Shown here piece after piece: positions 4,354 through 40,900 of a stretch of DNA of 64,000 bases. Source of the DNA: an uncultured Sphingomonas sp. (GTDB taxonomy: Bacteria > Pseudomonadota > Alphaproteobacteria > Sphingomonadales > Sphingomonadaceae); contig CBINJP010000020.1 in assembly GCA_966251045.1 (NCBI GenBank), positions 388 through 64,387 of the forward strand, in the 5' to 3' direction. Both the position numbers and the translations under genes were made by a program. The notes under the pieces were generated by a model. That model saw nothing but the letters and a program-made list of their open reading frames with translations. It did not search any database and was not told where the DNA came from. How positions within the stretch are numbered: position 1 is the stretch's first letter; each line of letters begins with the position of its first letter.

Positions 4354-4468
4354 CCGCAGACTCTCGGAAAAGGGGGGCGCGACGCCGCCGCATCCTCTCA
4401 GAAGACGGCGCCGCGCCTTGTGCCGGCGGGTCAGGGAAGGAGTCCCGCCGGCACCTGGGGGCTCGGGA

Positions 4469-4939: not shown

Positions 4940-5174
4940 GTCCTTTGTCTGTTGAACGGGATCACGGAGCGCCGGCCGTCGGCACAGGGGGCGCGAAGAG
5001 GGGAGTGAGACGCCTGTGTGGCGGCCAGTGCCCCGTGACGGCCTTCCAACTAGACCGGGGTTCGCGGGCATTACATTCGATTGTCGGCATTGATTCGATG
5101 CACGATCCGTATTTCCGTCGCGCACCGCCTTTCCCGCATCCTTGGGCCATCGAGATTCCCCAAGGAGATTTGAA

Positions 5175-5996
5175 ATGCATGTCGAGATTCTGGAGCGCGT
5201 CGATGCGAGCAAACCGCTCAGCGGGCGCATCGCCATCGTCACCGGATCGACCAGCGGCATCGGGCTGGGCATCGCCCGCGCGCTCGCCGCCGCCGGCGCC
5301 GATGTGGTGATCAACGGCCTCGGCGCGCCGCGCGACATCGAGATCACCTGCGATTCGATCCAGTGCGACTGCGGTACCCGGGTCGCCTATAATGGCGCCA
5401 ACCTGATGGATCCCGCGGGTGCCCGCGCGCTGGTCGAAGAGACGATCGACCTGTTCGGGCGGGTCGACATCCTCGTCAACAATGCCGGCATCCAGCATGT
5501 CAGCCCGATCGAGGATTTCCCGCCCGAGAAATGGGATGCGATCATCGCGCTCAATCTCTCGGCCGCCTTCCACACCATCCACGCCGCGTTCGGCGCGATG
5601 AAGGATCGCGGCTGGGGCCGGATCATCAATGTCGCCTCCGCCCATGCATTGGTCGCCTCGCCCTTCAAGTCCGCCTATGTCGCCGCCAAGCATGGCGTGC
5701 TGGGGCTGACCAAGGTGGTCGCGCTGGAAGGCGCGCGCTTCGGCGTCACCTGCAACGCGATCTGCCCCGGCTATGTCTGGACGCCTTTGGTCGAGAACCA
5801 GATCGAGGCGACCGCGATGGCGCGCGGGATCAGCCGCGAGGCGGTGATCCAGGACGTGCTGCTCGCCGCCCAGCCGAGCAAGCGCTTCGCCGAAGTCGAG
5901 GAGCTGGGCGCGCTCGCGCTGTTCCTGTGCGGCGAGGGCGGCAAGTCGGTGACCGGCGCGGCGTTGCCCGTCGATGGCGGGTGGACCGCGCAATGA
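5175..5996 (+). CDS. bdhA: 3-hydroxybutyrate dehydrogenase (short-chain dehydrogenase/reductase)
   Basis: AAGGAG RBS at 5162-5167 and ATG at 5175. Has the TGSTSGIGLGIA Rossmann motif, NNAG, the catalytic S...YxxxK (SAYVAAKHG) and a PGYVWTPLVE segment typical of BdhA-type SDRs. Confidence 0.8.
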   Translation: MHVEILERVDASKPLSGRIAIVTGSTSGIGLGIARALAAAGADVVINGLGAPRDIEITCDSIQCDCGTRVAYNGANLMDPAGARALVEETIDLFGRVDILVNNAGIQHVSPIEDFPPEKWDAIIALNLSAAFHTIHAAFGAMKDRGWGRIINVASAHALVASPFKSAYVAAKHGVLGLTKVVALEGARFGVTCNAICPGYVWTPLVENQIEATAMARGISREAVIQDVLLAAQPSKRFAEVEELGALALFLCGEGGKSVTGAALPVDGGWTAQ

Positions 5997-25440: not shown

Positions 25441-26382
25441 ATGTTGAGGATCATCGCGACGGTGTTGGCGGCTTCGCTCCTCTGGGCGATCCCTGCCAGC
25501 GCGCAACCGAAGATGGAAATCGACTATCGGCGCATCGCCAATTGTCAGGCTTATCGCGATTTCGTCAAAGCCTATGGCTCGCCTGCGGAACTGGCCGCAG
25601 GGCTGGCTCAGAAACAGCGTGAATATTGTATTCCCGCGCGCCCCCGGCCTGATCCGATCGCCCGCGAGTGGCGGCAGATCGGCGATTGCAGGTCTCTGGA
25701 AGCATTCGCCGCGCGCTATGGCAGGCTTCGCTATTACAGAAGCAGGATTCCGGCCAAGCGCAGCCAATATTGCAAGCCGTCGCCGCCCCCCAGTCCCGCG
25801 CCGCGCGCTCCGTCGCCCGGCGCCTATCTCTCCGGGTGGGACATGCTCGACCTCTATCGCGACAATTATTTCTGCTACAAATATGAGTCGGGAAATAGCT
25901 GTTCGGACTATGAGGAGCTTTACAGCTTCAACGACGGCCGGCTCACGCTGCGCAAATATCTGCTCTTCCCCGTGCCGGCCAGCAAGGTGCCGCTATGGGC
26001 GACGCGCAGGGAGCCCAATATGCGGCTCACGCTCTTCCAGACCCTGACGCCGCGTGCCGACGGGCTGTGCTGGGACCAATCCGCGCGTGTGGCCGCGGCA
26101 TCCTTCGCCGAGGGCTCGGTCTATACCGCCAATCATTCCTATATCCGGCCCTTCACCGGCCCCGCGCTTGGTGATCTGCGCGGCATGCTGAGCCAGATCG
26201 CCCGGCAGAACAGCACGAGGCTGATCTGTTCGCGCTATCGCAGGGTCTCGGGATCGGTGATCGCTGAGGATGCATTCGACGGCGACGAACAATATGCCTT
26301 TGGCGACCGGATCGTGCTGATCCCGCGCGGGGAATATCAGCCGGTTCTGCGGCTCACCACCGACGGCTATGGCTGGAAATAG
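25441..26382 (+). CDS. Secreted cysteine-rich hypothetical protein with two N-terminal ~35-aa repeats
   Basis: Signal peptide MLRIIATVLAASLLWAIPASA. Internal repeat YRRIANCQAYRDFVKAYG...YC / WRQIGDCRSLEAFAARYG...YC, then a Pro-rich linker and a ~190-aa C-terminal domain. I recognise no family. It has many A/T-ending and AGG/AGA codons. Confidence 0.6.
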   Translation: MLRIIATVLAASLLWAIPASAQPKMEIDYRRIANCQAYRDFVKAYGSPAELAAGLAQKQREYCIPARPRPDPIAREWRQIGDCRSLEAFAARYGRLRYYRSRIPAKRSQYCKPSPPPSPAPRAPSPGAYLSGWDMLDLYRDNYFCYKYESGNSCSDYEELYSFNDGRLTLRKYLLFPVPASKVPLWATRREPNMRLTLFQTLTPRADGLCWDQSARVAAASFAEGSVYTANHSYIRPFTGPALGDLRGMLSQIARQNSTRLICSRYRRVSGSVIAEDAFDGDEQYAFGDRIVLIPRGEYQPVLRLTTDGYGWK

Positions 26383-26397: not shown

Positions 26398-27831
26398 TCA
26401 GTTGCAATTGCTCCAGGTTTCCGACGGACCGTTTTCGGATCGCATGACGAGGCTCGCGCCATCGCGCGACGGCTCGTAGCGGTAGATCTTGCCACCCTCG
26501 CGTCCCACCACGGTCCCCGTTTCCCGATCGCGATCGATGATTTCCGCCCTGAACGGGGCCATGCCTTCCACGCGCACAACAAGGGTTCCGCCCTCCACCG
26601 CGACATTGCGGGCGACCTCGCACCGCGGATCGGTGGCATGGCGCCAGCGCCCCTCGACGCTTGGCGCATTCGCGACTTTTGGCGTGGGTGTGGGCGCGGG
26701 CGTCGGTTTGGCCTTCCGCTGCGGGACAGGTGTCTCGATCGCCGCATTCTCCAGCACGACCTCGTTATTCGTGAGCTCGAACGTGGGGACGGGTTCGGTG
26801 CCCCACCGCACCCAGACGATCGCCGCCGCCGCCGCTGCCATCACAAGCAGGCCGGCCGCGATGATCGACAGCGTCAGTCTCCGCCACCGCGGCGTATAGG
26901 TCGGCCAAGGCTCGCCACCACGATCGATCGGGCACGGATCTTTCTCGTCGGAGACGTACCCGGGCGGCTCCGATCTGGGCGCAGCGCCCGGGTCGAGCGT
27001 CAGCCTGTCGGCCCACGCCTCGAGGTCGCTGCCGCGCTTCGCGATGTCCGGCTCGAGCCCATCGACGATCGCGGCGATCAGCCGCTCGCCACGTCCGTTG
27101 GGGAGGTCGATCCGTCCACGAAGGATGTCCGCCATCGCCGCCGAGGCCCCGCGCAGGTCCGCGAGGCGGTCGCGGAAGTCGGGCGGCGCCTCGCCAACGA
27201 TGGTCCGGAACAGCGTCGCGGCCAGCCCGTACAGGTCGGTCCACGGTCCGAGCAGGGCGCGGCGCGATGCGTCCCAGAGTTCAGGCGCGGCGAAGCCGAT
27301 GCGGGCAAGTTCGCGATTGTCGGGCCGGAACGATGCGGTGGAGCGGATATCGATACCGCATCCGATCGGCGAAGCGCCGCTTTCCGTCATCTCGATCATC
27401 TCGGGGTGGACGTCGAGATGCAGCACCTGCCGGCGGTGCATCGCCGCCAGCTCCCTCGCCGCGTCGCGTGCGGTCGCGAGGAGCGCGAGCGGCTCCATCG
27501 GCGGCATTTGATCGAGTGTCGCGAGAGGCCTGGGCGAGACGGTCCACAGGATGCCGTCCTCGGAGCGGATCGCGTCCGTCCCGCCCGGGCGCCGCGTGCA
27601 CGCCCCGGCCATGCCTGTGGAAAGCGCGCGATAGGCGTCGGACGCCTTGGCCGGGATGCCCGCGGCGGGTATCGCCATTCCGTCGGGTCGCAACGGCCCG
27701 GGCAGGAAGGCCCAGGCGAGGTTCCGGGGTTCCTGCCCCTCGATTTCGTAGATCTGCCATTGCGGCGTGATCCGCCACAGGGACGAAAGCCGACCCAACT
27801 CGGCGGGCGGAGTGGGCATGTCCGGGGTCAT
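26398..27831 (-). CDS. Membrane-anchored Hanks-type kinase-like protein (degenerate motifs) with a small Cys-bracketed periplasmic domain
   Basis: ATG at 27831. Has an HRDxKPxN-like loop HLDVHPEMI (27394-27420), an APE-like AAPELW, DLYGLAATLF, GEAPPDF and C-lobe LEPDIAKRGSDLEAWADRL. No GxGxxG is seen. One TM helix (LSIIAAGLLVMAAAAAAIVWV), a Pro/Thr linker and an ~85-aa C-terminal domain follow. Confidence 0.6.
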   Translation of the reverse strand: MTPDMPTPPAELGRLSSLWRITPQWQIYEIEGQEPRNLAWAFLPGPLRPDGMAIPAAGIPAKASDAYRALSTGMAGACTRRPGGTDAIRSEDGILWTVSPRPLATLDQMPPMEPLALLATARDAARELAAMHRRQVLHLDVHPEMIEMTESGASPIGCGIDIRSTASFRPDNRELARIGFAAPELWDASRRALLGPWTDLYGLAATLFRTIVGEAPPDFRDRLADLRGASAAMADILRGRIDLPNGRGERLIAAIVDGLEPDIAKRGSDLEAWADRLTLDPGAAPRSEPPGYVSDEKDPCPIDRGGEPWPTYTPRWRRLTLSIIAAGLLVMAAAAAAIVWVRWGTEPVPTFELTNNEVVLENAAIETPVPQRKAKPTPAPTPTPKVANAPSVEGRWRHATDPRCEVARNVAVEGGTLVVRVEGMAPFRAEIIDRDRETGTVVGREGGKIYRYEPSRDGASLVMRSENGPSETWSNCN

Positions 27832-27862
27832 CGCGGGCAGGCCCTGTAGCGGCTGCGGCGCC

Positions 27863-28189
27863 TCATTTGCGCTCCGCCTTGTCCGCGTCCATCTCGTCGC
27901 GTTCGAAATGGATGCCCTCGTCATCGACCCGCAGATAGGGTTCCACGCGCGCATCCAGCCCATAGAGGCGAACCACGTCGCTCACGTTCGAGACGGGGCC
28001 GTCGCCGGTTTGCTGCGGAACCAGATCGTGCGAGCCGGCGCCAGGGCGCCAGAGGGTATCATAGGGGATGAGCGCGAATCCGATCATCGCGATGCTCGCC
28101 GCCACCGCGGCAGTAACGGGCCAGCGCATTCCCGTCTGCTCCTGGCGGGGCCCCGGGGTCTTGCGTTTCTGGATCCTCTGGAGAGCCAT
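27863..28189 (-). CDS. Small single-pass membrane protein (hypothetical)
   Basis: 108-aa ORF with ATG at 28189. Has a basic N-terminus and one TM helix (WPVTAAVAASIAMIGFALI). It is packed 9 nt after the PBP-like gene and 31 nt before the kinase-like gene. Confidence 0.5.
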   Translation of the reverse strand: MALQRIQKRKTPGPRQEQTGMRWPVTAAVAASIAMIGFALIPYDTLWRPGAGSHDLVPQQTGDGPVSNVSDVVRLYGLDARVEPYLRVDDEGIHFERDEMDADKAERK

Positions 28190-28198
28190 GGCGCGTTC

Positions 28199-30574
28199 CT
28201 AGTTTCCGGGCGCCGGCGCCCGGCAGGGCGTCGTCATCCATCGCAGATAGGCCGAATCGGGAGCGGTCAGCAGTTCGGCGGCGAAGGCGAGCGCGTCGGT
28301 GGTCCGGCGCTGCAGGTTGATGACCAGCACTTTCAGCCCGCAGATTTGCGAGGGCATGGCGGGCAGCGCGCCCGTGCTGGTCCGCACCGCCATCAGCACC
28401 AGGATATGCCCCTGTTCCTTCGCGGGCTGATCGACGTCGGCGGTACCGGTCTTGGCGAAGAAAAAGACACTGCCCTCCACGCCCTGGGGCTGCGCGAGCA
28501 GCTTCCATAACTGTTTGGCGGTGCCCTTCTGGACCACGTTCGACATGGCATCGCGAATCTCGCGCCAGGCCTCCGCATGCATTGCGACGGTATCGGGGGC
28601 GACGTCGCCCTTGGCGGGCGTGAGCCTGGGGCTGATCCCGCGGCCGGAAAGGATGCGCGCATAGGCCTGACCCAGATTGGCGGTACTCCACAGGCTCCGG
28701 TTTCCGCCGATCACGCTCAGGTAGAAATCGATAAAGTCATTGTCCCGCAGCCCCATCATCAGATTGAGCCGCGGCAGTTCGAATGCATTCGACCCGAGCG
28801 GCTGATTGTCCGCGTCGCGCCACAGATGAGGCGAGCAATGGCTGGTGGTCCCATCCCATCCAAGGTCGGGCGCGCCCGGCCGGATGCCATAGGGAATCAC
28901 GCAGCCGAACCGCCAGAGATTCGCCGCCCAGCTTCTTTCGGACGAAAAGCTCTGGCCGGTCCGCTCATCATGCTCGACGCCCTTCTTGGCGAGCACCAGC
29001 GCATATTCGTTGTTGGAGAAAGTGAGGAAGGCATTGAAATCGACCTTCCCGTCGCCGCGATGCCCCGGGGCGTTTTCGATGCCCTGCTTGTCACCCAGCA
29101 TCAGTTGATGCCCATCGACATCGTGAAAGACAGGACGGTAGGGAATGACGAGCTTCAGCAGGTCGGGATAGCGATCGGTCACGGCCGCCGCGAACGGCAC
29201 CTTCGCGGCGGAGCCGATCGTCAGCCCCCGGAAATTCATGTTGGTCCGCAGCCAGTTGAGCCGCGTGCTATCCTCGCGATCGTCCATCGCGAGCTGGTTG
29301 ACCTCGGTGGGGAAGGTCGCCGCGGCGGCGATCTCGCCCGTCAGCCCGTCCATCATCAGTGCCGCGCCGCGATACGAGAAGCGAGGGGGCGATCCGGGCG
29401 CGTTGTCGGCGGTCATCCGCACCGCCAGCCGGCGTTGCAGATCGAGATGCATCCGCCCAACGATCGACGATTCGAAATCGCCGCCCTCGATTCCCGATTG
29501 CTCGAACCATTGCGACACGTCGCGCAGGCTGGGCTCGCGGATCCTCCGGCCAGCCGAGAGTTCGGAAATCGACCCCGGCGTCTCGGCGAGCTGCAGCGTA
29601 CGCTTGCGCCCGCCCTGACCTTCGATCGTCAGGAACTGATCGGGGCGGATCAGCCAGTAACGGACATTGTCATAGGCCGGCTTGGCCTTCCCGGCCTCCC
29701 CCTTCGCGACGAGGCGGCCATCGATATAGATCTGTACCGTGCCGAGCCGCGACGGAATCTCCACCAGCAGCGCCCGGCCGAGCGGCACCAGCGCGATCGC
29801 GGTGGGCTGGAAGGGCGAACCCGGCACGCGCGATTCGAGTGCGAGCACGACGCGCGATGCCTCGCCCCCGTCGAACTCGCCCGCGAAGAGCTGATCGACC
29901 GGGAATTCGGCTTTGGCGCGCCCGCGCGCAAACCTGAAGACGGCGCGCTTCCCGCCGACTTCGGAAAGAACCAGCATCGGCTGGGCGGGGTCATAGCCTT
30001 TCGCCTTGCCCGCGGATTCGCCGCGATAGTTGACGACGCCTTCCCATATCTTTCGCGGCCCGCCCGCCGCGATCAGCACATGCGCGGTGGGCTGCAGGCC
30101 AGCCACACCATTGTCCTCAAGCTGCCAGCGGTTGATCTGCCGCATGTCGAGATCGAGATAGCTGCGGCTCGCATAGGTCATCAGCCGCTTCTCGCACGGC
30201 CCCCGGGGATCCGCGACGAACCAGGGCAGGAAGCGCTGGCGCTCCCACAAGGTCCGGCAATCGCCCCCGGCCTTCAGCACGCGCGCGATCGCGTCCTTGT
30301 CCCACTGGACCCGGATCAGCGGCGGCTGGCCGGGACGCTCGACCATCGTCCGCTTGAACAGGCCTTCGTGCGCCATCTTGTCCACTGCCGCGCGATACCC
30401 GATCTCGGCCGAGAGCTGGCGCGAGCCCGAATTGCCCGCCGGCCAGGGCGGCGAGGCGAGGACCAGCAGCGTTAGCAGCGCGATGCTGAGCGCGATCAGC
30501 ACCTTCTCGGCGCTGACTCGCGGCCACTTGCGCTTGACCTGCGCGGGGGCGTCGCGGCGCGCGAGTTTAGCCAT
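28199..30574 (-). CDS. Divergent class B penicillin-binding-protein-like transpeptidase with a large unknown N-terminal ectodomain
   Basis: ATG at 30574 (MAKLARRD...; the track start at 30610 is a TTG). One TM helix. All three PBP active-site motifs are present with normal spacing: SAAK (29201-29212), SNN (29009-29017) and KTG (28445-28453). The pre-SxxK motif RGAALMMDGLTGEIAAAATFP resembles the conserved bPBP block. Confidence 0.7.
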   Translation of the reverse strand: MAKLARRDAPAQVKRKWPRVSAEKVLIALSIALLTLLVLASPPWPAGNSGSRQLSAEIGYRAAVDKMAHEGLFKRTMVERPGQPPLIRVQWDKDAIARVLKAGGDCRTLWERQRFLPWFVADPRGPCEKRLMTYASRSYLDLDMRQINRWQLEDNGVAGLQPTAHVLIAAGGPRKIWEGVVNYRGESAGKAKGYDPAQPMLVLSEVGGKRAVFRFARGRAKAEFPVDQLFAGEFDGGEASRVVLALESRVPGSPFQPTAIALVPLGRALLVEIPSRLGTVQIYIDGRLVAKGEAGKAKPAYDNVRYWLIRPDQFLTIEGQGGRKRTLQLAETPGSISELSAGRRIREPSLRDVSQWFEQSGIEGGDFESSIVGRMHLDLQRRLAVRMTADNAPGSPPRFSYRGAALMMDGLTGEIAAAATFPTEVNQLAMDDREDSTRLNWLRTNMNFRGLTIGSAAKVPFAAAVTDRYPDLLKLVIPYRPVFHDVDGHQLMLGDKQGIENAPGHRGDGKVDFNAFLTFSNNEYALVLAKKGVEHDERTGQSFSSERSWAANLWRFGCVIPYGIRPGAPDLGWDGTTSHCSPHLWRDADNQPLGSNAFELPRLNLMMGLRDNDFIDFYLSVIGGNRSLWSTANLGQAYARILSGRGISPRLTPAKGDVAPDTVAMHAEAWREIRDAMSNVVQKGTAKQLWKLLAQPQGVEGSVFFFAKTGTADVDQPAKEQGHILVLMAVRTSTGALPAMPSQICGLKVLVINLQRRTTDALAFAAELLTAPDSAYLRWMTTPCRAPAPGN
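29201..29212 (-). other. SxxK (SAAK) putative acyl-enzyme serine motif of the PBP-like protein
   Basis: The reverse complement of 29201-29212 reads TCC GCC GCG AAG (S-A-A-K), within LTIGSAAKVPF. Confidence 0.6.
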
Positions 30575-33140
30575 TGCCCGGCGCCTCCCCGGTTGGCCGT
30601 CCGCAGACAAAGGGCAGCGCCGTCAGCAGCAGCACCGCCATCGCCTCGGCCAGATCGCCGCCCGAGGTCACCGCGAGCAGATAGATGTTCCGCCCGGTGA
30701 ACGGGACCCAGTTCAGATTGGCGAGCACCATATAGGCCGCGGCCCAGAAAAAGGTGATTCGCGCCGCGACCCCGGCGATGCGCGGCCAGTCGCAGGCGGT
30801 ATCGTCCCCGGCTTCGGCATCATCGCGCGGCCTCAGCGCGAGCATCCCCGCCAGGATCACCGCCAGCACCGCCAGCGCACCCAGGCGGCCCCAGGGCCAG
30901 ATGATGTGAACCGCGGCGAGATTGTCCGAATATTGATATTTGCGCAGCGATTGCTGGATGTTCGACTGGGCGAGATATCCATGGCCGATCATCTCGCGGG
31001 TGAGGGGGCCGAGGCTGGTGGTCTGGTCGAGCGATTCGAAGGCGTGGGTGGTGCCGATCTGTTCGACGCGCGAAGGCCAGAGATAGGCGAGCATGCGAAT
31101 GTCGTTGCGATCCCACTCGGAAGTGGTGGCCAAATGCTCGTTGAGCTTCTGCTGGGGTGAGGGAATCTCGCCGCTGAGCGCGATCCCCAGCGCGAACAAG
31201 GCGACCAGCGTGGGCGCCATGGCGAGGGGCATGAGCCACGGCCACCGCTTGACGATCCCGCCAAGCCCTTTCGCGTCCCGAAATCCGAACCAGGCGATCG
31301 CGACCGCGAGCGGTATGCCGTAGACGAGCATCGAACCGAAATCATGGGTCAGCCACGGAACCACGCCATAGGCGGCGAGGAAGAGGACGAGCATCAGTCC
31401 GGTCGAAAGCCCGCGTTTGCGCAGACGCTGCGTACCGTCGAGGAGCAGCGCGAACCCCAGGATCATCGCCGGCACGTAGATCAGGCTCAGCGGCACGCCG
31501 AAGGGCCGCTCGCTGAAGCGCGATCCCAGCAGATAGGCGCCGATCAGCAGCAGGAACAACCGGAAGGCGACCATGGCGACGATGATCGCGATGCCGAGCG
31601 TATAGGTCCGCGGCAGGCGGTCGATCCACGCGAGCAAGGGCCGGACGCGCTGCCAGATACCCTTCTCGCGACGCGGGACCTTCCCGCCGGGGGCTTGCAG
31701 CAGGGCGCCCAGCAACGCGCAGGCGAGCGCCAGCGGGCTCTCGCGTCCCGGCCATACCAACCGTGCCGTCACCGCGACGCCCGTCATGTAAAAGAGGGCC
31801 GCGGGGAGCCCGCCCCAGGCGACCCCGCCCAGCGCGATCGCGATCGCGGTAAAGCCGGCGAGCAGGAGCAATAGGAAAGCGCTCAACATCGGCCGCAGAT
31901 CCGCATCGGCCTGCCGGAAGGCGAGCACGATCAGCATGGGCAGGCAAAGGAAGGATGCCAGTGGATCCCAGAGCACCTCGGTCAGCCCCTGGCGCGAATC
32001 ATAATATAATCCAGCCACGCCAATCAGCAGCCGTAGCGCGAGCAGCCATTGCACCAGCGGCACGAGTACGCGCTCGGGCGTCGGCTTGCGCCACGCCGCG
32101 GCGCAGAGTGCATGCATCGCCAGTGCGCAGAATATCACGAAGAAGCCGGAAAAGACCGGCAGGAACACCTTGCTCGCGTGAAGCGACAACCTGGCGTCGG
32201 CCGCCTCGACGCCGCTGGGCCACGCGAAATCGGTGTCGGTCTTGGCGCAGAGCGACGAGGGTTCGGCCACCGGGCCCAGCCATTTGGCTTCGGCCACGGG
32301 ATTGGCGCCGCCCAGCCCGAGTCCGGTGAAGACGAGATTGTCCGGATCGAGGAATTCCGGCTCCTGTCCGTCGCCGCCCGCCGCGGGCGAAAGGCGCAGG
32401 CGCGGGAGCTTGCACGAGCCGGCATCGGCGACCAGTGGCTCATTCAGGTTGAGCTCGATGACCGGCGAATCGCCGCCCCGCAGATAGAGCGTGAAGGAGC
32501 GCCGCGGGGCCCATTTGCCGTCGAGGTCGATTCTCGAAACGGTGAGCTCGATCGGCTCGCCCGGGATCAACTCGCGTGTCTCGGGCGCACCGGGCTGGAG
32601 CTCGGTATCGCCGATCTTCACGCCCATCCCCGGAATTTCCTGGTCGGACTGCGGCGCGAAGCTCTGGAGCACGATCTCGGCCTTCATCACCGCATCGCTG
32701 TCGGCGGGCCGAGACGGGGCCTTCGCGCGCACCGTCACAAAGGCGCGCGGATCGGCTGGCATCGAAATGCGTGAAAGGCTCTGATCGGCATAGGGCGGTA
32801 CCACCAGGTCCGCCGAATCGCGGCTGTCGCCGACGATCAGGAAGGGCTGGAACTCCGGCGCGGCCGTGTCCTGACGCTTTGCCTCAGTCCCGTCCTCTGC
32901 CCTGGTCGCTTCCGTGGCGACGACGACCGACTGGGGTATCCGCAACTGCATGATCCGGACGGTCAACTGGTCGCCCTCGCCGCCGGCGAGCGCGGCGACG
33001 AAAGCGGCAAAGGGAATGGCGATCAGCAGGAAGGTGCGGAGCAGGCGAAAAACGCCCTTTTCGCCCAGTGACACCCGGTCGAACCATAGCAGCAGGCCGA
33101 ACGCGACGTTCAATCCGGAGAAGATGAGGGTCTCGAACAA
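30567..33140 (-). CDS. Giant SEDS (FtsW/RodA/SpoVE)-like polytopic membrane protein with a ~320-aa N-terminal extension
   Basis: TTG start at 33140, preceded by AAGGA 6 nt upstream. The C-terminal ~520 aa has about 10 hydrophobic helices. SEDS-like blocks are HDFGSMLVYGI (cf. PDLGTAL), GHGYLAQSN (cf. GxGxGxG), QYSDNLAAV (cf. HTDFIFA) and VPFTGRNIYLLAVTSGGDLAEA (cf. PxTGxxLPFxSYGGSS). The N-terminus has two TM helices and a ~270-aa soluble insert. Confidence 0.6.
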   Translation of the reverse strand: MFETLIFSGLNVAFGLLLWFDRVSLGEKGVFRLLRTFLLIAIPFAAFVAALAGGEGDQLTVRIMQLRIPQSVVVATEATRAEDGTEAKRQDTAAPEFQPFLIVGDSRDSADLVVPPYADQSLSRISMPADPRAFVTVRAKAPSRPADSDAVMKAEIVLQSFAPQSDQEIPGMGVKIGDTELQPGAPETRELIPGEPIELTVSRIDLDGKWAPRRSFTLYLRGGDSPVIELNLNEPLVADAGSCKLPRLRLSPAAGGDGQEPEFLDPDNLVFTGLGLGGANPVAEAKWLGPVAEPSSLCAKTDTDFAWPSGVEAADARLSLHASKVFLPVFSGFFVIFCALAMHALCAAAWRKPTPERVLVPLVQWLLALRLLIGVAGLYYDSRQGLTEVLWDPLASFLCLPMLIVLAFRQADADLRPMLSAFLLLLLAGFTAIAIALGGVAWGGLPAALFYMTGVAVTARLVWPGRESPLALACALLGALLQAPGGKVPRREKGIWQRVRPLLAWIDRLPRTYTLGIAIIVAMVAFRLFLLLIGAYLLGSRFSERPFGVPLSLIYVPAMILGFALLLDGTQRLRKRGLSTGLMLVLFLAAYGVVPWLTHDFGSMLVYGIPLAVAIAWFGFRDAKGLGGIVKRWPWLMPLAMAPTLVALFALGIALSGEIPSPQQKLNEHLATTSEWDRNDIRMLAYLWPSRVEQIGTTHAFESLDQTTSLGPLTREMIGHGYLAQSNIQQSLRKYQYSDNLAAVHIIWPWGRLGALAVLAVILAGMLALRPRDDAEAGDDTACDWPRIAGVAARITFFWAAAYMVLANLNWVPFTGRNIYLLAVTSGGDLAEAMAVLLLTALPFVCGRPTGEAPGNG

Positions 33141-33150
33141 GCGCCGTCCT

Positions 33151-33753
33151 TCAGGAAACGACGTTGCTTGAGTAGAGCCAGAAATAGGCCCTGCGCGTGA
33201 CGAAGAGCATCGCGATCGAAATGAGAGCGAGCACGAACAGCGCCGGCCACAACAGCGTGAAGAGCCATCCGAACCAGTTCGGCATCACGTCGAGCACGGG
33301 TGACTTCGCCGCGAGCCAGTCCGCAAAGCCGCAATCGCCGAAATCCTTCGTGACGAGCGTCCGGACCACCTCGCGATGCGCGCCCCATCCCTCGAGCCCG
33401 CAGACATGGGTGACCATCCATTCGCTTTCGCGCTCGGGAAGCGGGACCATCCCGGGGCCGCTCGAATCCAGCGCTCCCGAGCGGCGTACATTGTTCGCCT
33501 CTTCGGCAAGCAGCGTCCGCATGCGCAGCCCGAAACCCGCATCCAGCCTGGTCGCGGCCGCAATCGCGGCTGGCGGCTTCGGCCCCCTGAGATCCTGGTT
33601 GAACGCGGTATTCTGGCTGTCGTTGAAGGTCGGGTTCGTGAACACGCCCAGCACCCAGAGCGACACGAAGAACAGCACCCCCAAGGCCCCGGTCAGCGCC
33701 GCCCACCCCCAGCGGAGCTGGTCGCGAAACAGAAAGGCAAGGATCACCTTCAT
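33151..33753 (-). CDS. Two-TM membrane protein (hypothetical)
   Basis: 200-aa ORF with ATG at 33753. TM helices lie near both ends (WAALTGALGVLFFVSLWVLGVF; WLFTLLWPALFVLALISIAMLFV), flanking a ~120-aa loop with two Cys. It sits 15 nt after the GTPase gene and 10 nt before the SEDS-like gene. Confidence 0.5.
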   Translation of the reverse strand: MKVILAFLFRDQLRWGWAALTGALGVLFFVSLWVLGVFTNPTFNDSQNTAFNQDLRGPKPPAAIAAATRLDAGFGLRMRTLLAEEANNVRRSGALDSSGPGMVPLPERESEWMVTHVCGLEGWGAHREVVRTLVTKDFGDCGFADWLAAKSPVLDVMPNWFGWLFTLLWPALFVLALISIAMLFVTRRAYFWLYSSNVVS

Positions 33754-33768
33754 GGATGCCGCTCCACT

Positions 33769-35256
33769 TCAGAATTCCGGGATAACGCCGGCATGGGCAA
33801 TCCCCGCGAGCCGCCTGCGCACATTGGCTGCCCAGGAATAATGCTGCCGGAACACCCAGTTGCGGCTTCCCAGTTTCCGGGCGAGCGAGATCCACTGCAG
33901 TACCTCGACCACGCCGTGCGGCGGATGCTTGCGGTAGTGCTCGCGGCTCAGCAGATCGCTGTCCGGCGCCCCGAAATATTCGGGCTGATGCCCGTAAAAT
34001 GCAGTCGCATAATCGAATTTCGAGAGCGGAAAAACCGAGATCAGCTGAGCATGCAGATCGCGCCGCGCCTGATGGATCGTATCCCACGGATTTTCGAGCG
34101 GCAGGTTGCCGGCGCGGTCCGCCAGCGCCCGCAACACGCCGGTCTCCGGACGCTCGCGAAGCTCCGCGTTGCGCAGGCGCAGCATCGCGTCATTCTCGTC
34201 ATTGTAGAAGAGCGACAGCGCCCGGTCCGCCTTGGTCAAGGCGAAGAAGGTCGGGCAATCGAACCCGTTCGGGCCGCCGATGGGGCCGCGATTGGTGACA
34301 TAGTGGCTCTTCACCACCGCCGGCGTGACGCGCTTGAAAGCCTCGGCATCGGCAGGGTCGATATTCTCGTGGCGCATATAGCCGAGCACGCTCGCGACGC
34401 GGAATACGCCCGCCGCGAACTCCTCGAGCTGGTCGGTGCCCCTGCGGAAGTCCTTGGCCCATGCCAGCAGATGCGGCTTGGCCTGATTCACCTGCCTTGC
34501 GGCTGCGCGAAGCGCGGCGGGACTGGGAGCCTCGCCCTCCGGCATGCTCAGCTTGGCGAGGCCGGCCTTGGCGTCGGCCAGCACCTCCTTGTCGTCCGCC
34601 GGCATCAACTCTCCGAAGATCATCAGATCGGTCGGGAGCGCGACGATCATCGCCTTGGCGTAATCCATCGCGCCGAGCAGCATCCGCAGTCTGCTATAGT
34701 CGGCGCTGATCAGGTCGTGAGTCTGGTCGCCCGGCATGTCGATCAGCACGAACGTCTTCGGCTTGCCATGGACATAATGGAACTGGAGGTCGCTGGTGCT
34801 CGGCAACGTCGCCGATTCGCCGTCCTCCGCCGTGACCCGCTTGAATTCGGGATCGCTCGGCATGCTGAAGGGCGCCTTAAGCAGCTGCTCCTTCATCCGG
34901 TGCAGCAGCCAGGTCTTGCCGGCGCCGCCGAAGCCGACGAACAGAATCGCGAACAGGCCCTTCGCCTTGATCTCCTTCAACTCGTCGAAGAAAATCTCTT
35001 CCTGGGTCTTTGGCCGAATGGGAATGGTGCCGCCTCGCGCCGCGCCGCCGCCCGGCGCCATGGGCGGAGGAGCCGGGGTCGGGCCGGGGCCGGGACCGGG
35101 CACGGGCAGCGCGACGACCCGTTGAGTCGTCGGTTCGGGGGTCTTGTCGTCCTGCTCTTCCACCTTTTCCCCCGCGCCGAATATCTCGCAAAGGCTGCAT
35201 CGACCCGTTTCAGGATCGATGGGTTCCCGGTGGACACCGCAGACCTCGCTGGCCAC
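33769..35256 (-). CDS. P-loop GTPase (TRAFAC-type motifs) with N-terminal Cys/His cluster and Pro-rich linker
   Basis: GTG start at 35256-35254 overlaps the upstream TAG by 1 nt. Motifs: G1 GFGGAGKT (34912-34935), G3 DMPG (34729-34740) and G4 TKAD (34225-34236). The N-terminus has C-x2-H...C-x2-C (CGVHREPIDPETGRCSLC). There are about 165 aa between G3 and G4. Confidence 0.65.
   Translation of the reverse strand: MASEVCGVHREPIDPETGRCSLCEIFGAGEKVEEQDDKTPEPTTQRVVALPVPGPGPGPTPAPPPMAPGGGAARGGTIPIRPKTQEEIFFDELKEIKAKGLFAILFVGFGGAGKTWLLHRMKEQLLKAPFSMPSDPEFKRVTAEDGESATLPSTSDLQFHYVHGKPKTFVLIDMPGDQTHDLISADYSRLRMLLGAMDYAKAMIVALPTDLMIFGELMPADDKEVLADAKAGLAKLSMPEGEAPSPAALRAAARQVNQAKPHLLAWAKDFRRGTDQLEEFAAGVFRVASVLGYMRHENIDPADAEAFKRVTPAVVKSHYVTNRGPIGGPNGFDCPTFFALTKADRALSLFYNDENDAMLRLRNAELRERPETGVLRALADRAGNLPLENPWDTIHQARRDLHAQLISVFPLSKFDYATAFYGHQPEYFGAPDSDLLSREHYRKHPPHGVVEVLQWISLARKLGSRNWVFRQHYSWAANVRRRLAGIAHAGVIPEF
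34912..34935 (-). other. Walker A / G1 motif of the GTPase
   Basis: The reverse complement reads GGC TTC GGC GGC GCC GGC AAG ACC (G-F-G-G-A-G-K-T). Confidence 0.7.
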
Positions 35257-36701
35257 TAACGCGCCTTGAGCAGCATCATCGCGAAGAAGAGCGATTCAAC
35301 CACCGGCCAATGCCGATGCCCGCACCCCTCCGAATAATATTCACGCTGCAGGACAGTGGTCGACAACGCTTCCAGAACCCCCCGAGACTTGGTTGAGATA
35401 ATCTTCAACAAATCCTTGCTTGTCAAAACAAGAAGGTCGCGCCGGAATGCCGGAGGCCATGATTTGATGGTCGCCTTGAGCTTCTCGAACGATTCGTTCC
35501 GGGGTTCGAGCGTGTCGATCGATTTTCGAATCAACGAGATGATGTTTCCGCGCAGATCCGGATCGGTCGCGGTCTTGCCGGACCGCGTCGCTTCGAGCGC
35601 ATATCCCACCAATTCGGACAGGTCGCCGGCATGGACGTTCCCGTCCATCTGCTTGCCGTAGCAGGCCAGCGCGAGCGCGGCGAAATCGGGCGAGCCACTG
35701 CCCATTGCCTTCAGCACGGCGCTCAGCGGCGCGTCCATCCCCTGTTCGTGAAGCGCCGCGACATATTCGGGCTGCACGCTGCGTACCGCGCCCGCCAATG
35801 CAGGCACCCCGGCATCCCGGAAAGTACCGAGCAGCTCGAGCATGGTCAGGGGGGGGAGCGCGCTGCTGGCCATGCGCAGCGCATCCGCCGCCACGCGCTC
35901 GGCCGGCAGCGCGCCATAGCCCTGGCGCCATTTCAGTGCGGACACTGCCGGCGCGAAATTATTCTTCCCGCCGATATGCTGCTTGGCCGCCTCCCAGGCG
36001 AGCCAGGCCGGCGGCGGCGGGGCGGCAGGCTTCTCGCCGTCCGATTTCATGGAATAGGGCAACAGACCCGGCGGCGGTGCCGCGACGGGCTCGGTAGCGA
36101 CCACCAGCTGGCTGTCCCGAAGCAGATCGAGCCCTCCGCGCGGCACCAGCTGCGCCGAGGTCGCCCAGCCGGCTACTCGCGGCCGTTCCTCGACGGGCCA
36201 AACCGACCGAAGCGCTTCGATCAGGATGGCATCGCGGTCCTCGTCACGCTCGACCAGGATCAGGCGATCGGCCCAGGCCAGGCCCAGATCCGGCCAGTCC
36301 AACTGCTCCTGCTCCGGAACGGCCACCTCTACGGGATCGCGCCCGAAATTGCCGGTCCCGTCGGGCTCCTTGATCTCGCCCAGCACCAGTTCGGTGCGAT
36401 GGCCGAGCGCCGCCAGACTCGCGCTGTCGATCATTACGCCATTCAGAAAGGCTTCTTCGCCCAGCGCGCCGCGACCGCGATACCACGCGCGGAACACGAC
36501 CGCGCCCTCGCCCTCGGGCAGCGCCACGCACGCGGCGAAGCTCTTCTCATCCGTTCTGGACCATTCCATCAGCACCATCGCCAGGTCGGTGGCGCGGGTG
36601 AAGGCGATGGGCGAGGATTGGGCAAGCACGCGATAATTGCGCCCCTGCGATTGCGGCCCGATCACGAAGGTCGGCAGCGTGAGCCGCCCGCCTCCAGTCA
36701 T
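35256..36701 (-). CDS. Hypothetical 481-aa soluble protein, candidate GTPase partner
   Basis: ATG at 36701 forms an ATGA overlap with the upstream gene stop (36698-36700). I recognise no motif. The N-terminal ~120 aa alternate beta/alpha-like segments. There is a Pro-rich linker (PVAAPPPGLLP...KPAAPPPPAW). The C-terminal half is helical, with visibly lower GC. Confidence 0.55.
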   Translation of the reverse strand: MTGGGRLTLPTFVIGPQSQGRNYRVLAQSSPIAFTRATDLAMVLMEWSRTDEKSFAACVALPEGEGAVVFRAWYRGRGALGEEAFLNGVMIDSASLAALGHRTELVLGEIKEPDGTGNFGRDPVEVAVPEQEQLDWPDLGLAWADRLILVERDEDRDAILIEALRSVWPVEERPRVAGWATSAQLVPRGGLDLLRDSQLVVATEPVAAPPPGLLPYSMKSDGEKPAAPPPPAWLAWEAAKQHIGGKNNFAPAVSALKWRQGYGALPAERVAADALRMASSALPPLTMLELLGTFRDAGVPALAGAVRSVQPEYVAALHEQGMDAPLSAVLKAMGSGSPDFAALALACYGKQMDGNVHAGDLSELVGYALEATRSGKTATDPDLRGNIISLIRKSIDTLEPRNESFEKLKATIKSWPPAFRRDLLVLTSKDLLKIISTKSRGVLEALSTTVLQREYYSEGCGHRHWPVVESLFFAMMLLKAR

Positions 36702-37465
36702 CCGCCCGAACCTCTCCGCGTTGGCGCTGGCCCGCAATCGGTGCTCGCGTTGGGCCGTACCTTCGCCAAGTTTTGCTCAACCCTGCAAAGTTCGTTCGTA
36801 TCGCGATACTTGTTTGTCGCCGCGCAACCCACTTTGAAGCCCTCAGAAGCGCGAATCCGCGCTATTTCCGCATCGATATTCCACCTCGCCTGGCAGATTT
36901 TCAGGTCGGCGTCGGACACTGCCTTACGTGCTTCATTGCCCAAGGCCAGTTCGCGCTCCTGCCCGGCGCTGTTTTGTGAGAAATAAAGGGCTGCGCCACC
37001 CAATAGTAACGCGAGCGGTAGCGCGATCAAAATAAACAGAAGGAATTGCCTCACTTGGACAGTCCGGGCCCACCGGCTTGTACCATCTTCGCCGGGCGGC
37101 TTGCCCTCGACCGGCGGATCGGAGTCCAGCGGTGCTTCGGCGGTCACGGGCTCGTCCGGCGGTATGGAAGGGAGCGGCGGGTCCGGGACTTCGCTCTTCG
37201 GTGGGTCCTTCGGGCCGAGGGTCTTCGGCAACTTTGCGATCACCGCATCGGCCACCGCCTGCGCGTCGGGCCAGGCGATTCCCTTCAGACTTGCCGTCAT
37301 CGACGATTTAATCTGCGCGTCGATCGATTCCTTGAAGGCCTTGTCCAGCCCTGTCTGACGCCCCGCCGCGACTTCCCTCGCGATGAATTCAAGCACGAAC
37401 TCCGCCATTTGCTGCTGGAGGGTCGCGAAGGCGTCCGGTTCTTCTTGTTCGTCGGTGGCGCTCAT
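36698..37465 (-). CDS. Bitopic membrane protein: acidic cytoplasmic N-terminus, Pro-rich linker, four-Cys C-terminal domain (hypothetical)
   Basis: 255-aa ORF with ATG at 37465, the first gene of the operon. Has a TM helix FLLFILIALPLALLLGGAALYF and a C-terminal segment with 4 Cys (KICQARW...GCAATNKYRDTNELCRVEQ...STDCGP). Confidence 0.55.
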   Translation of the reverse strand: MSATDEQEEPDAFATLQQQMAEFVLEFIAREVAAGRQTGLDKAFKESIDAQIKSSMTASLKGIAWPDAQAVADAVIAKLPKTLGPKDPPKSEVPDPPLPSIPPDEPVTAEAPLDSDPPVEGKPPGEDGTSRWARTVQVRQFLLFILIALPLALLLGGAALYFSQNSAGQERELALGNEARKAVSDADLKICQARWNIDAEIARIRASEGFKVGCAATNKYRDTNELCRVEQNLAKVRPNASTDCGPAPTRRGSGG

Positions 37466-37924
37466 GACTTGCCGGGTCCCCGCAGCAGCTTGGTTCTCCT
37501 AATGGTGCTGCGGATTGCCAGCAATCGCAAGATGCGGGGCCATCGCTTCGACGATGGTTGCCGCGCGCTGGATGGGGGCGCCGGCATATCCTCTCGACGA
37601 TTCGCCCGCCGATCGTGCCGCGCGTTGGCGCATGGCTGTCGAGCTGGCGTTCCAGTTGGTCGTTGCGGGTCGTTAATTGTCCACAACAAGATGTTGTTCG
37701 AATAGATTTTTTCAGATTCGAACGGTGCTCAGAATCGGCGCGATAAAATACTAGAAAACATTGTTGGCCGTGAATATGCTGACTGCGGCAATAAGCGGTA
37801 TGCCGCTCGTTTGTAGCATTCCGACCGTATAGGCCGAGTATATTCTCGCAAACAGAGACTTGCCGTCAGCGCAAGCATTCCATGGTCGCATCGTCCCGCC
37901 TCGTGCACACGAGAGTGATCGACC
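37466..37924. promoter_or_regulatory. Divergent control region between the GTPase/SEDS/PBP operon and the Tc toxin genes
   Basis: 459-bp intergenic region with an AT-rich core (about 37680-37860). Contains inverted repeats ACAACA-aga-TGTTGT (37683-37697), GTTCGAA-N14-TTCGAAC (37696-37723), GCGGCA-N10-TGCCGC (37785-37806) and CTCGTG-ca-CACGAG (37900-37913, 11 nt before the Tc ATG). Confidence 0.45.
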
Positions 37925-40900
37925 ATGCCGGCATCGACCAAGGCAGAGAATGGAAAAGAGGCGCCTCCGGCGGCGTCTCCCCCTGCCATCTCGCTCGCCA
38001 AGGGCGGCGGGGCGATCCGCAGCATGGGGGAGAAGTTCGCCGCCAATCCGGTAACCGGCACTGCCTCGATGACGATTCCCGTCGCGGTGAGCCCGGGACG
38101 GGCGGACTTCGGCCCCCAATTGTCGCTCAGTTACGATTCGGGTTCGGGAAACGGCATATTCGGCCTTGGCTGGAGTCTGTCGCTGCCCGCCATCGCGCGC
38201 AAGACCGCGAAGGGACTCCCCCGCTATCGCGACTCCGAGGAGTCGGACGATTTCATCCTGTCGGGCACCGACGATCTGGTGCCCGTGCTGCTTCCGGACG
38301 GAACCCGGCAGCGCGATGAGACGATTGCGGCGGGCTATATCGTTCACCGCTACCGGCCGCGCATCGAAGGGCTGTTTGCGCGCATCGAGCGCTGGACACG
38401 CAAGAGCGACGGCGATGTCCATTGGCGCACGCTCTCGCGCGAGAATGTCCTGAGCCTCTATGGCGCCAATGCGGACTCGCGAATCTTCGATCCCGCGGAC
38501 AAGACCCGCATCTTCAGCTGGCTGATCAGCGAGACCCGCGACGATCGCGGCAATGTGATCCTTTACGATTACAAACCGGACGACGGCGTCGGCGTCGATC
38601 TGTCGCGGGTCTGCGAACGCAGCCGCGGCGTGGCGAACGCGCCGGGACGAGCCACCAACCGCTATCTGAAGTCGGTTCGCTACGGGAACAGGGCGCCGCT
38701 GCTGACGGCGGCGGGCAAGCGCCCGGCATTCCTGTCCGACCTGCCGGCCGCGAAGCTTGCCGGCGCCGAATGGATGTTCCGGGTCGTGCTCGATTATGGC
38801 GAGCATGACGGCGCCGCGCCCTCTCCGGGCGATGCGGGCGTCTGGGCCTTCCGTGCCGATCCCTTCTCGTCCTGCCGCTCGGGATTCGAGGTTCGCACCA
38901 CGCGCCTGTGCCGCCGCGTCCTCATGTTTCACCATATCCCCGATCTCCCGACCGGCGAGGCGGGGTATGACGGCCTCGTCCGGTCGACCGACTTCACCTA
39001 TCGCGGCGACCTCGATCCGTCCGATGCCCGCAATCCGGTCTATGCCCAGCTGGTCCAGGTGGAGCAGGCGGGATACCGCAAGCTGGGCGACGGCAGCTAT
39101 GTCCGGCGCAGCCTGCCGCCGGTCGAGTTCGATTATTCGGTCCCCGAGATCGACGAGACGGTCCGCGACATCGACCCGGCGAGCATGGAGAATCTTCCGG
39201 GCGGGGTGGACGGCTCGCATTATCGCTGGGTCGATCTTCACGGCGAAGGGGTGCCCGGCATCCTCTCCGAACAGGCCGGCGCCTGGTTTTACAAACGCAA
39301 TATAAGCCCGATCAGCGCCACGCCGGTCGGCTTCGCCCCGGCCGAATGCGTCGCCGCAAAGCCGAACCGGGCGATTGCGGGGGGGCATGCCCAGTTCATG
39401 GATCTGGCCGGAGACGGCCTCCCCGACCTGGTCGATCTGCGCGTGCCCGGCGCGGGCCTGTACGAGCATGACCTTGCCGAGGGCTGGGAGAAGTTCCGGC
39501 CGTTCGTCGCCCCTCTCAACCGCGATACGCGCGATCCCAATGTCCGCCTGATCGATCTGACCGGCGACGGCGCGCCCGACATCCTGGTCACCGAAGACGA
39601 TGCGATGGTCTGGCATCCGTCATTGGCCGAGGACGGGTTCGGCCCGGGCCAGCGGGTCGCCTGGGCCGCCGATGAGGAAAAGGGGCCGCGGCTGCTGTTC
39701 GCCGACGCGACCCAGTCCATCCACTTCGCCGATCTCAGCGGTGACGGGCTAACCGACCTCGTGCGCATCCGGAACGGCGAGATCTGCTATTGGCCGAATC
39801 TCGGTTATGGCCGGTTCGGCGCGAAGATCACGATGAACGGATCGCCGCTGTTCGATCATGCCGATCGCTTCGATCACCGGCGCGTGCTGCTAGGCGATAT
39901 CGATGGCTCCGGCACGACCGATATCGTCTATCTCCACCCCGACGGGATCAGGCTCTACTTCAACCAGTCGGGCAATGGCTGGAGCGCCGCGCGGCTGCTG
40001 CGGGTGCTGCCGCCGGCGGGGCCGATGGTGTCGGTGACCATCGCCGACCTGCAAGCCAACGGCACCGCGAGCCTGGTCTGGTCGTCGCCGCTTGCGAGCG
40101 ATGCGCGCCGGCCGATGCGCTACCTGAACCTGATGGGTGCCACCAAGCCGCATCTGATGGTCAGGATGGCGAACAATCTGGGTGCCGAGACCCTCATCAG
40201 CTACGCGACCTCGACCAAATTCTACCTTCGGGACCGGCGCGACGGCACGCCCTGGATCACGCGGCTGCCCTTCCCGGTGCACGTCGTCGAGCGCGTCGAG
40301 ACGCTGGACCGGGTCGCGCGGAACCGCTTCGTCACGCGCTATGCCTATCACCATGGTTATTTCGACGGGCCCGAGCGCGAATTCCGCGGCTTCGGCATGG
40401 TCGAGCAATGGGATACCGAGGATTATGCCGCGCTCGCCGCCGATGGCGTGCTCGCGCCGGGCGACAACGAGCATCCGTCCTCGCGCGTGGCGCCGGTCCA
40501 TTCCAAGACCTGGTTCCACACCGGCGCCTGGTTCGGCCGCGACCATGTGTCGGACTATTTCGCCGGGCTGCTGAACGGCGTCGATCGCGGGGAATATTAT
40601 CGCGAGCCGGGCCTGAGCGACGCCCAGGCGCGGGCAATGCTGCTTGCGGATTCAATCCTTCCGCCGGGCCTGTCGATCGAGGAGGAGCGCGAGGCGGTCC
40701 GCGCGCTCAAGGGATCGACTCTGCGCACCGAACTCTATGCCGATGACGGCACCGCGCGCGCGGTGCATCCCTATACGGTCACCGAGCAAAATCTCGCGGT
40801 CAGGCTCGAACAGGGACGCGGGATCAATCGTCACGCGGTCTTCTCCACCCATGCCAGCGAGACGCTCACCTACGAATATGACCGCGATCCCGCCGACCCG

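Follow-up and report, generated by a model that had tools for sequence, protein, structure and literature searches.

An operon of eight genes, here called A to H, lies on the minus strand at positions 26398-37465 of a 64,000-nucleotide stretch of DNA from an uncultured Sphingomonas sp. (assembly GCA_966251045.1, contig CBINJP010000020.1, positions 388 to 64,387); this whole stretch is referred to below as the window. We consider it an even call whether the operon's products form an accessory peptidoglycan-synthase complex that is self-contained, horizontally mobile and fitted with a GTPase switch. At the core of this reading stand E, a probable remote relative of the SEDS glycosyltransferases RodA and FtsW, and F, which resembles the penicillin-binding proteins of class B (bPBPs). 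Around them are encoded a GTPase-like protein (C) with two putative partners (B and D), a kinase-like membrane protein (H) and two further membrane proteins (A and G). The folds and motifs of these proteins, the conserved order of their genes, the fusion of C to D in some relatives, and the rarity and mobility of the cassette are direct observations, and they are presented in turn below.

The eight open reading frames (ORFs) are tightly packed. Read on the minus strand, the stop codon of A overlaps the start of B in ATGA (36698-36701), the stop of B overlaps the GTG start of C in TAGTG (35254-35258), and E and F share an 8-nt overlap, ATGGCTAA, at 30567-30574; from A to H the successive spacings are -4, -1, 15, 10, -8, 9 and 31 nt. 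An earlier note on this DNA, made from the letters alone, had described eight packed minus-strand genes with these overlaps and gaps, and on re-reading the junctions we found an exact match; the gene sizes and topologies that it gave also matched the ORF list and a hydropathy scan, from which all topologies reported here are taken. By this prediction, B, C and the kinase-like domain lie in the cytoplasm; the catalytic domains and the Cys-rich ones lie in the periplasm. Elsewhere, the order A-B-C-D-E-F-G-H is kept in the loci L001, L002, L005, L007, L020, L025 and L026, and in part in L006. Because the packing goes together with a gene order that recurs at these eight other loci, the eight genes are a real operon, as the note had proposed. 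As the note had also stated, there are no mre, mur, fts or mraZ genes among the window ORFs scanned. Scans of all eight proteins against Pfam, NCBIfam and PADLOC returned sub-threshold matches only: Transpeptidase (16.8 bits) and pbp2_mrdA (E 6e-5) for F, a P-loop for C and a weak kinase match for H.

F (28199-30574, minus strand; 791 aa, bitopic, N-terminus inside) is called a class B PBP because its predicted structure and its invariant motifs agree. A single N-terminal transmembrane (TM) anchor is followed by a divergent, beta-rich region of ~300 aa and then by the transpeptidase domain, whose motifs read SAAK, SNN and KTGT. The corresponding positions, S455/K458 (SxxK), S520/N522 (SxN) and K708-T-G-T711 (KTGT), are invariant in 14 homologues, including those of a distant clade. 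When the AlphaFold2 model of F (predicted local distance difference test, pLDDT, 73.5) was compared with the PDB by Foldseek, the best 50 matches were all class B PBPs (E down to 4.8e-14, probability 1.0), among them the PBP3/FtsI proteins from P. aeruginosa, E. coli, Y. pestis and M. tuberculosis, and 410 matches fell at E<=1e-3. A profile search of the PDB also ranked class B PBPs first, weakly (PBP2/PBP5). At the sequence level, the 16.8 bits obtained with the Pfam Transpeptidase model (PF00905) lie below its gathering cut-off of 22.1, and two distant relatives of F scored 21.3 bits (P0026) and 22.6 bits (L021, just above the cut-off). The segment just before the transpeptidase domain aligns with residues 202-279 of T. 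thermophilus PBP2, and no other part of the pedestal aligns. Judged from the model, F is bPBP-like, with an unusual pedestal region and intact active-site motifs.

E (30567-33140, minus strand; 857 aa) has ~14 predicted TM segments and a 268-aa periplasmic insert after TM2; it has a novel N-terminal periplasmic beta-sandwich region and a C-terminal domain of ~520 aa with remote SEDS (RodA/FtsW) homology. The reference for this homology was an alignment of 12 SEDS sequences, namely E. coli RodA and FtsW and ten diverse plasmid-borne SEDS genes, to which hhalign aligned the C-terminal 538 residues of the E alignment over 237 columns (P=1.5e-4). The unshuffled score was 42.3, compared with a maximum of 31.4 among 120 block- or window-shuffled versions and with 23.3 for a reversed alignment, and the control comparisons of E with E. 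coli WaaL and MraY gave P=0.93 and P=0.51, respectively. Significance in hhalign was reached only with the 12-sequence alignment: a two-sequence RodA/FtsW profile was not significant (E 0.12-0.13), and a much larger, automatically aligned profile of the E family gave a weaker match that covered the C-terminal motifs only (P=0.0037). Transitive evidence came from a SEDS hidden Markov model (HMM) run with filters off against 142 members of the E family. It matched P0062 (1.4e-6), P0065 (6.4e-6) and P0011 (4.7e-5) in alignments that span QPDLGT through TDFIF, whereas among 852 decoys, 142 of them reversed and 710 window-shuffled, the best value was ~0.05; PF01098 had no match to the distant members that this HMM matched.

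Four motifs are collinear and similarly spaced between E and the SEDS proteins in the hhalign alignment: FGVPLS pairs with QPSE, T(H/R)D600xG with QPDLGT, YSD739N..A.H with HTDFIF, and PFTGRN..L..TSGGD with P.TG.PLP.SYGGS. The two acidic residues within them are strongly conserved. D600, which aligns with D159 of E. coli RodA (in QPDLGT), is Asp in all 142 relatives, and D739, which aligns with E. coli RodA D262 (in TDFIF), is Asp in 118 of the 142 and Glu in the other 24; D262 is the equivalent of T. thermophilus D255. In addition, E544 is invariant (141 of 142) and lies 8 residues before S552, the Ser aligned with that of QPSE. We are fairly confident, from profile comparisons in which the controls scored lower, that E is a remote SEDS homologue, and one that probably retains catalysis.

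The third component, C (33769-35256, minus strand; 495 aa, soluble), has a Cys-pair zinc ribbon at its N-terminus, from which a low-complexity linker leads to the GTPase domain; a conserved extension makes up the C-terminal part. In the window the GTPase motifs read GFGGAGKT, DMPGD and TKAD, and the corresponding G1 (GxxxAGKTWLLHR), G3 (DxPGE/D) and G4 (TKAD) are conserved in 13 orthologues. No small-GTPase family model among the Pfam and PDB profiles gave a significant match to C. The best PDB profile matches, to Sar1, Arf and SR-beta, cover the P-loop only (E ~0.04), and the Pfam Arf model matched eight of the 13 orthologues weakly, all under threshold (best E 0.0034). On its motifs, C appears to be a TRAFAC GTPase of Arf/Sar-like type, very divergent and without the catalytic Gln.

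Downstream of C, D (33151-33753, minus strand; 200 aa) crosses the membrane with two TM segments; the periplasmic loop between them (128 aa) contains two conserved Cys, and a conserved cytoplasmic tail follows. A profile search of the PDB found no match to it. In two loci C and D are a single polypeptide, with the GTPase N-terminal and D C-terminal (L003, 117-2567, 816 aa; L022, 3691-6066, 791 aa). We read this Rosetta-stone fusion as direct evidence for a GTPase that would work at the membrane together with D, and D itself as its putative membrane tether. B (35256-36701, minus strand; 481 aa, soluble and cytoplasmic) is conserved in all full loci, with 33% identity in the distant-clade copy of L022. 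It had no match in Pfam, NCBIfam, PADLOC or the PDB, and may be a partner or regulator of the GTPase, to which its overlapping stop codon would couple it in translation.

The last gene of the operon, H (26398-27831, minus strand; 477 aa from an MTPDMP start), encodes a protein with 322 residues in the cytoplasm, a single TM segment and, in the periplasm, a domain of 136 aa in which a Cys pair is conserved. A profile of six H sequences matched 731 kinase chains of the PDB at E<=1, among them PpkA (5HNV, 6e-16), PknB (2e-8) and StkP. This alignment is confined to the C-lobe, including APE and the next helix. In the orthologue alignment the N-terminal part contains no conserved Gly-rich loop or VAIK Lys, HRD is replaced by HLD in most loci and by HLG in L020, the Asn is missing, and the DFG position is occupied by GFG, CGI, GAG or AIL. 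As these catalytic motifs have been lost, we rejected an active Hanks kinase, and H is most likely a pseudokinase that serves as sensor or scaffold. Where the earlier note saw a membrane Hanks-kinase-like protein, then, the homology to the kinase fold (PpkA/PknB) stands, but the catalytic motifs are missing. Against PADLOC-DB 2.0, H gave weak, generic kinase matches (PD-T4-6 at 9.6e-8, also MADS6) and the other seven operon proteins gave none.

The remaining two proteins are bitopic. A (36698-37465, minus strand; 255 aa) has 141 aa in the cytoplasm at its N-terminus, then a single TM segment and a periplasmic tail of 95 aa with four Cys; it had no Pfam or PDB match, and its orthologues are the first cassette gene in L001, L002, L005, L007 and L020. 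G (27863-28189, minus strand; 108 aa) has its N-terminus inside and carries a conserved ALIPYD motif at the periplasmic end of its TM segment. It lies between F and H in the window and in L001, L002, L005, L007, L020, L025 and L026, and is absent from the fusion clade L022. Library and PDB profile searches detected no relatives of known kind for A, B, D or G. As for the four folds guessed in the earlier note, the bPBP-like F is upheld by its model fold and motifs, the P-loop GTPase by G1, G3 and G4 across orthologues, the SEDS-like E by the profile-profile and transitive HMM evidence, and the kinase by its fold; all four guesses survive testing, and none of these folds is visible to Pfam at its thresholds.

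The cassette is rare. Among 5.8 billion proteins the close homologues amount to nine full-length E, 13 F and 12 C; the cassette is present in one of 185,579 species genomes, a Caulobacterales metagenome-assembled genome (MAG; GCA_038236615.1). Contig scans found two loci in metagenomes and one in genomes, and none of 72,556 plasmids gave a tblastn match to E or C. The gene order persists at low sequence identity: in L020 the GTPase is only 31% identical and the order is still kept, the order B, C, D, E, F, H holds down to 25-31% identity (L020, L022), and a distant clade formed by L003, L022 and L023 has the order B, C::D fusion, E, F, H. The neighbouring genes, in turn, differ in every locus. 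They are ordinary metabolic or regulatory genes in L001, L002, L025 and the window; transposases or insertion sequences (ISs) flank L007 and L022/L023, and behind the copies in L022 and L023 a DDE_Tnp_1 transposase and a Trypsin_2-Sel1 protein are encoded; and a SopB-type gene comes after L026. Rare, patchy and sometimes flanked by ISs, the cassette is accessory and mobile and is not a lineage trait. Because it is rare and mobile, its distribution speaks for a role that is accessory and conditional, such as repair, hardening or defence of the envelope, and against one in housekeeping growth.

Five of the loci have a ninth gene, which overlaps the end of the kinase-like gene and encodes a secreted right-handed beta-helix protein of 376-395 aa with a signal-peptide-like N-terminus (PF13229, best E 2e-7). 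It is found at 16759-17946 in L001, 16916-18052 in L005, 14311-15441 in L007, 18983-20143 in L025 and 12640-13797 in L026. No homologue of it was found in the window by tblastn, and downstream of H the window has only a plus-strand ORF (25441-26382).

E also belongs to a much wider family, which in an exhaustive HMMER search comprised 547 clusters (at 50% identity) at E<=1e-3; with the threshold at E<=1e-30 the number was 248. The ten cluster records looked up carried no name or 'hypothetical protein', a label that the homologues of E, F and C bear throughout, and their named sources were Pseudomonadota (some unclassified) and Thermoanaerobaculia MAGs. The 547 clusters probably contain several cassette types. 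More distant pairs of E-like and F-like genes occur in L021 (2718-8341; 913/961 aa) and at the P0010 locus (1045/882 aa), with different upstream genes and with no BLAST match to B, C or D. In L002 an MreB/Mbl-family gene (4442-5485) lies directly upstream of the cassette and divergent from it; this is so at that locus only and may be coincidence. As regards SEDS genes in general, small mobilizable Enterococcus faecium plasmids (9-12 kb) and one 47-kb plasmid carry an FtsW/RodA/SpoVE-family gene, and on the one plasmid examined (L019, CP063584.1, 436-1976) a bacteriocin gene adjoins it. With 300 plasmid records containing SEDS homologues, mobile SEDS genes are not rare in themselves.

From these observations we infer enzymatic activities, GTPase gating, complex formation and a biological trigger along the following lines. 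E, as a divergent SEDS-type glycosyltransferase, would polymerise lipid II, and F, as a divergent class B PBP, would cross-link the product of E. C, held at the membrane by the two-TM protein D and assisted by soluble B (perhaps as a GTPase-activating protein, a guanine-nucleotide exchange factor or an effector), would be the nucleotide switch by which the E-F pair is licensed or positioned, and the C/B/D module would stand in place of the FtsZ/FtsA-FtsQLB or MreB-RodZ-MreCD of housekeeping pairs. H, with its PpkA/PknB-like pseudokinase and its periplasmic Cys domain, would join A and G as sensor or scaffold subunits that couple periplasmic cues to the complex. The secreted beta-helix protein goes with the cassette in most other genomes, the window being without it. 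The trigger would likely be conditional envelope remodelling or repair.

Several points weigh against this reading. E, together with nine close homologues and 12 distant relatives, had no match to PF01098 or in NCBIfam even at E<=1-5, and a sequence-profile search of the PDB with E found nothing. Its AlphaFold2 model, built from nine sequences, was poor (pLDDT 59), and Foldseek against the PDB returned nothing at E<=0.001; because the model is poor and has no structural match, the SEDS homology of E rests on remote sequence statistics. Nor were the Glu and Lys of the SEDS QPSE..K motif (RodA E114/K117) recovered in the alignment of E, where the aligned segment, FGVPLSLIYVP, keeps the Pro and the Ser and not the Glu and Lys. 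F had no PBP-dimer/pedestal (PF03717) match in Pfam, and its first ~300 periplasmic residues (~50-345) are novel and beta-rich. In C, the residue after DxPG is Glu or Asp where Ras and Arf carry the catalytic Gln. Moreover, the evidence fits a C that regulates E and F as well as it fits one that is merely co-inherited with them, and a mobile, patchy distribution is equally typical of conflict systems.

That last point bears on a second explanation, which we think unlikely: that the operon is a system of conflict, defence or envelope surveillance. Here the PpkA-like sensor would detect phage, an effector of a type VI secretion system (T6SS) or antibiotic attack, and the GTPase would turn on E and F to harden or repair the wall or else to derail its synthesis as an abortive response. 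The rare, patchy distribution, the neighbours that differ at every locus and the IS elements that flank L007 and L022/L023 all fit such a system, as does the closest solved relative of H, the T6SS threat-sensing kinase PpkA. H also has weak matches to defence-associated kinases (PD-T4-6 at 1e-7, and MADS6), and shortly upstream of P0010 there is an ImmA/IrrE-type HTH-Peptidase_M78 gene together with a Pfam Beta_protein gene. However, no component except H matches PADLOC, and the cassette has no typical effector such as a nuclease, an NADase or a pore-former. Ordinary metabolic or regulatory genes surround it in L001, L002, L025 and the window, and the retention of all catalytic residues in E and F fits a constructive enzyme.

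The features that set E and F apart from their canonical counterparts could instead point to a polymer other than peptidoglycan, an explanation that we regard as distinctly improbable. E would then polymerise another undecaprenyl-linked glycan, F would work on a different substrate, as a serine acyl-transferase or a peptidase, and the beta-helix protein would process the polymer. It is true that E is far from canonical SEDS proteins, with no Pfam match and with the QPSE Glu and Lys not aligned, that it bears a large extra periplasmic domain, that the N-terminal ~300 aa of F are novel, and that the usually linked gene encodes a beta-helix, a glycan-acting fold. Yet the nearest structures to F are exclusively class B PBPs and its D-Ala-D-Ala transpeptidase triad is kept, while E has its match among the SEDS proteins and none to WaaL, a related O-antigen ligase. 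SEDS and bPBP genes that adjoin and overlap are, besides, an established hallmark of peptidoglycan synthase pairs (surveyed in PMC12516126).

Very improbable, in our view, is a developmental or polar morphogenetic machine of certain Alphaproteobacteria, which would build a stalk, bud or cyst wall and be comparable to SpoVE-SpoVD. The named hosts, a Caulobacterales MAG and a Sphingomonas MAG, are compatible with it, as is the MreB-like gene divergently upstream in L002, and where Ser/Thr kinases flank an additional SEDS/bPBP pair, its role is often developmental (PMC12516126). But the cassette was found in only one of 185,579 species representatives, so that it is no trait of a lineage, it has relatives among the Thermoanaerobaculia and among unclassified Pseudomonadota, some loci are IS-flanked, and the MreB neighbour is seen at one locus only.

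We give next to no credence to the idea that the operon serves the divergent Tc (ABC) toxin genes, by export or release through the wall, or that E and F are a housekeeping SEDS/bPBP pair: a TcB-TcC fusion gene and a TcA gene, the latter with a peptidoglycan-binding domain, do start 459 bp upstream on the other strand, but no other listed locus has Tc genes beside the cassette, on which ground the functional link was rejected, and a housekeeping pair is excluded by the extreme rarity of a family with one match in 185,579 species genomes.

The Tc locus itself occupies 37925-55580 on the plus strand of the window. It encodes a 2669-aa TcB-TcC fusion (SpvB, TcdB mid-N and mid-C, FG-GAP) that ends in a C-terminal Ntox5 toxin domain, and a 3210-aa TcA with an N-terminal PG_binding_1, a neuraminidase-like domain and a TcB-binding domain. 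Between it and the operon lie the 459 bp of the divergent intergenic region (37466-37924), a probable promoter region in which the G+C content falls to 0.49-0.51, compared with ~0.66 nearby. A scan of 37466-37924 for sigma-70-like hexamers called no promoter. The region contains a unique 15-bp palindrome, ACAACAAGATGTTGT, at 37683-37697, which is a candidate operator.

SEDS-bPBP pairs are core wall-building enzymes and major antibiotic targets, and to our knowledge actin- or tubulin-like filaments, with their adaptors, control every pair characterised so far. If the accessory-synthase reading is right, the same catalytic pair is here connected to a small GTPase as switch and to a pseudokinase as sensor, and moves between genomes as a unit. 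In its boldest form, which we hold tentatively and a little short of even, an Arf/Sar-like GTPase on its own two-TM tether would directly gate a dedicated SEDS-bPBP synthase, giving a third, filament-independent kind of wall control carried by a mobile cassette of 8-9 genes, and the E family of ~550 clusters would be a hidden, unannotated SEDS branch. That family, sizeable as it is (547 clusters at 50% identity), is invisible to domain-based surveys of morphogenetic synthases, and the cassette is missed by them because neither E nor F passes the Pfam thresholds. Were it a device for envelope repair or defence, it would represent a new class of conditional wall synthesis; and were F to bind beta-lactams poorly, the cassette could act as a mobile tolerance determinant.

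Among known systems, the operon may first be set beside the SEDS-bPBP pairs RodA-PBP2, FtsW-FtsI and SpoVE-SpoVD. As in these, the gene for a polytopic putative glycosyltransferase is followed by an overlapping gene for a bitopic transpeptidase, small bitopic partners are encoded alongside, F has the predicted bPBP fold with SxxK, SxN and KTG, and E can be aligned with the four SEDS motifs and retains acidic residues corresponding to RodA D159 and D262. In contrast to them, E is 857 aa long, compared with ~370-420 aa, with ~14 TM segments and a 268-aa periplasmic domain, and is unseen by PF01098, while F has no detectable pedestal domain. The cassette, unlike these pairs, is rare and mobile, has no mre, fts or mur neighbours, and comes with a small GTPase, the soluble protein B and a pseudokinase as partners in place of actin- or tubulin-like filaments.

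Accessory SEDS/bPBP pairs flanked by Ser/Thr kinases exist (PMC12516126), and these, like the actinobacterial operon for cell-wall signalling rodA-pbpA-pknA-pknB (with pstP-fhaA-fhaB), share with our operon the succession of a SEDS gene, a bPBP gene and a gene for a membrane Hanks-fold protein with an extracytoplasmic sensor domain. The earlier note had drawn the rodA-pbpA-pknA-pknB parallel; it holds for the gene architecture but not for kinase activity, H being probably a pseudokinase, with no Gly loop, no VAIK Lys and no DFG Asp. The sensor domain of H is, furthermore, not of the PASTA type, and where that operon has FHA and PP2C genes the cassette has the GTPase module of B, C and D. A similar contrast applies to PpkA, the T6SS threat-sensing membrane threonine kinase (PDB 5HNV). 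It is the best solved match to H (E 6e-16), and both are bitopic with a periplasmic sensor part; however, PpkA is active and works with Fha1 and PppA, whereas the motifs of H are degenerate and the cassette has no T6SS, FHA or phosphatase genes.

C, for its part, may be compared with Arf, Sar1 and SR-beta and with the bacterial Ras-like polarity GTPases MglA and SofG. Its P-loop is nearest to those of Sar1 and Arf, G1, G3 and G4 are present, and its predicted role, that of a membrane-associated switch with a dedicated, co-encoded partner protein, would be of the same kind. Unlike them, C is 495 aa long with an N-terminal zinc ribbon and a long C-terminal extension, has Glu or Asp for the catalytic Gln, and is putatively tethered by, and sometimes fused to, a two-TM protein; unlike MglA-type systems, moreover, the cassette has no recognisable Roadblock/MglB-type partner. 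We know of no case in which a GTPase of the Arf, Sar or MglA type has been linked to a SEDS-bPBP pair. Our literature searches found no description of this gene cluster, which, with the 'hypothetical protein' labels, is consistent with the earlier note's view that the combination had not been described. On present comparisons, then, the cassette appears to be an undescribed system whose closest known kind is the SEDS-bPBP synthase pair and, in architecture, the kinase-flanked accessory pairs; what is novel in it is that both enzymes lie outside curated families, that E is twice the normal size, that a GTPase module and a pseudokinase take the part of regulators while FHA and PP2C are absent, and that the whole is mobile.

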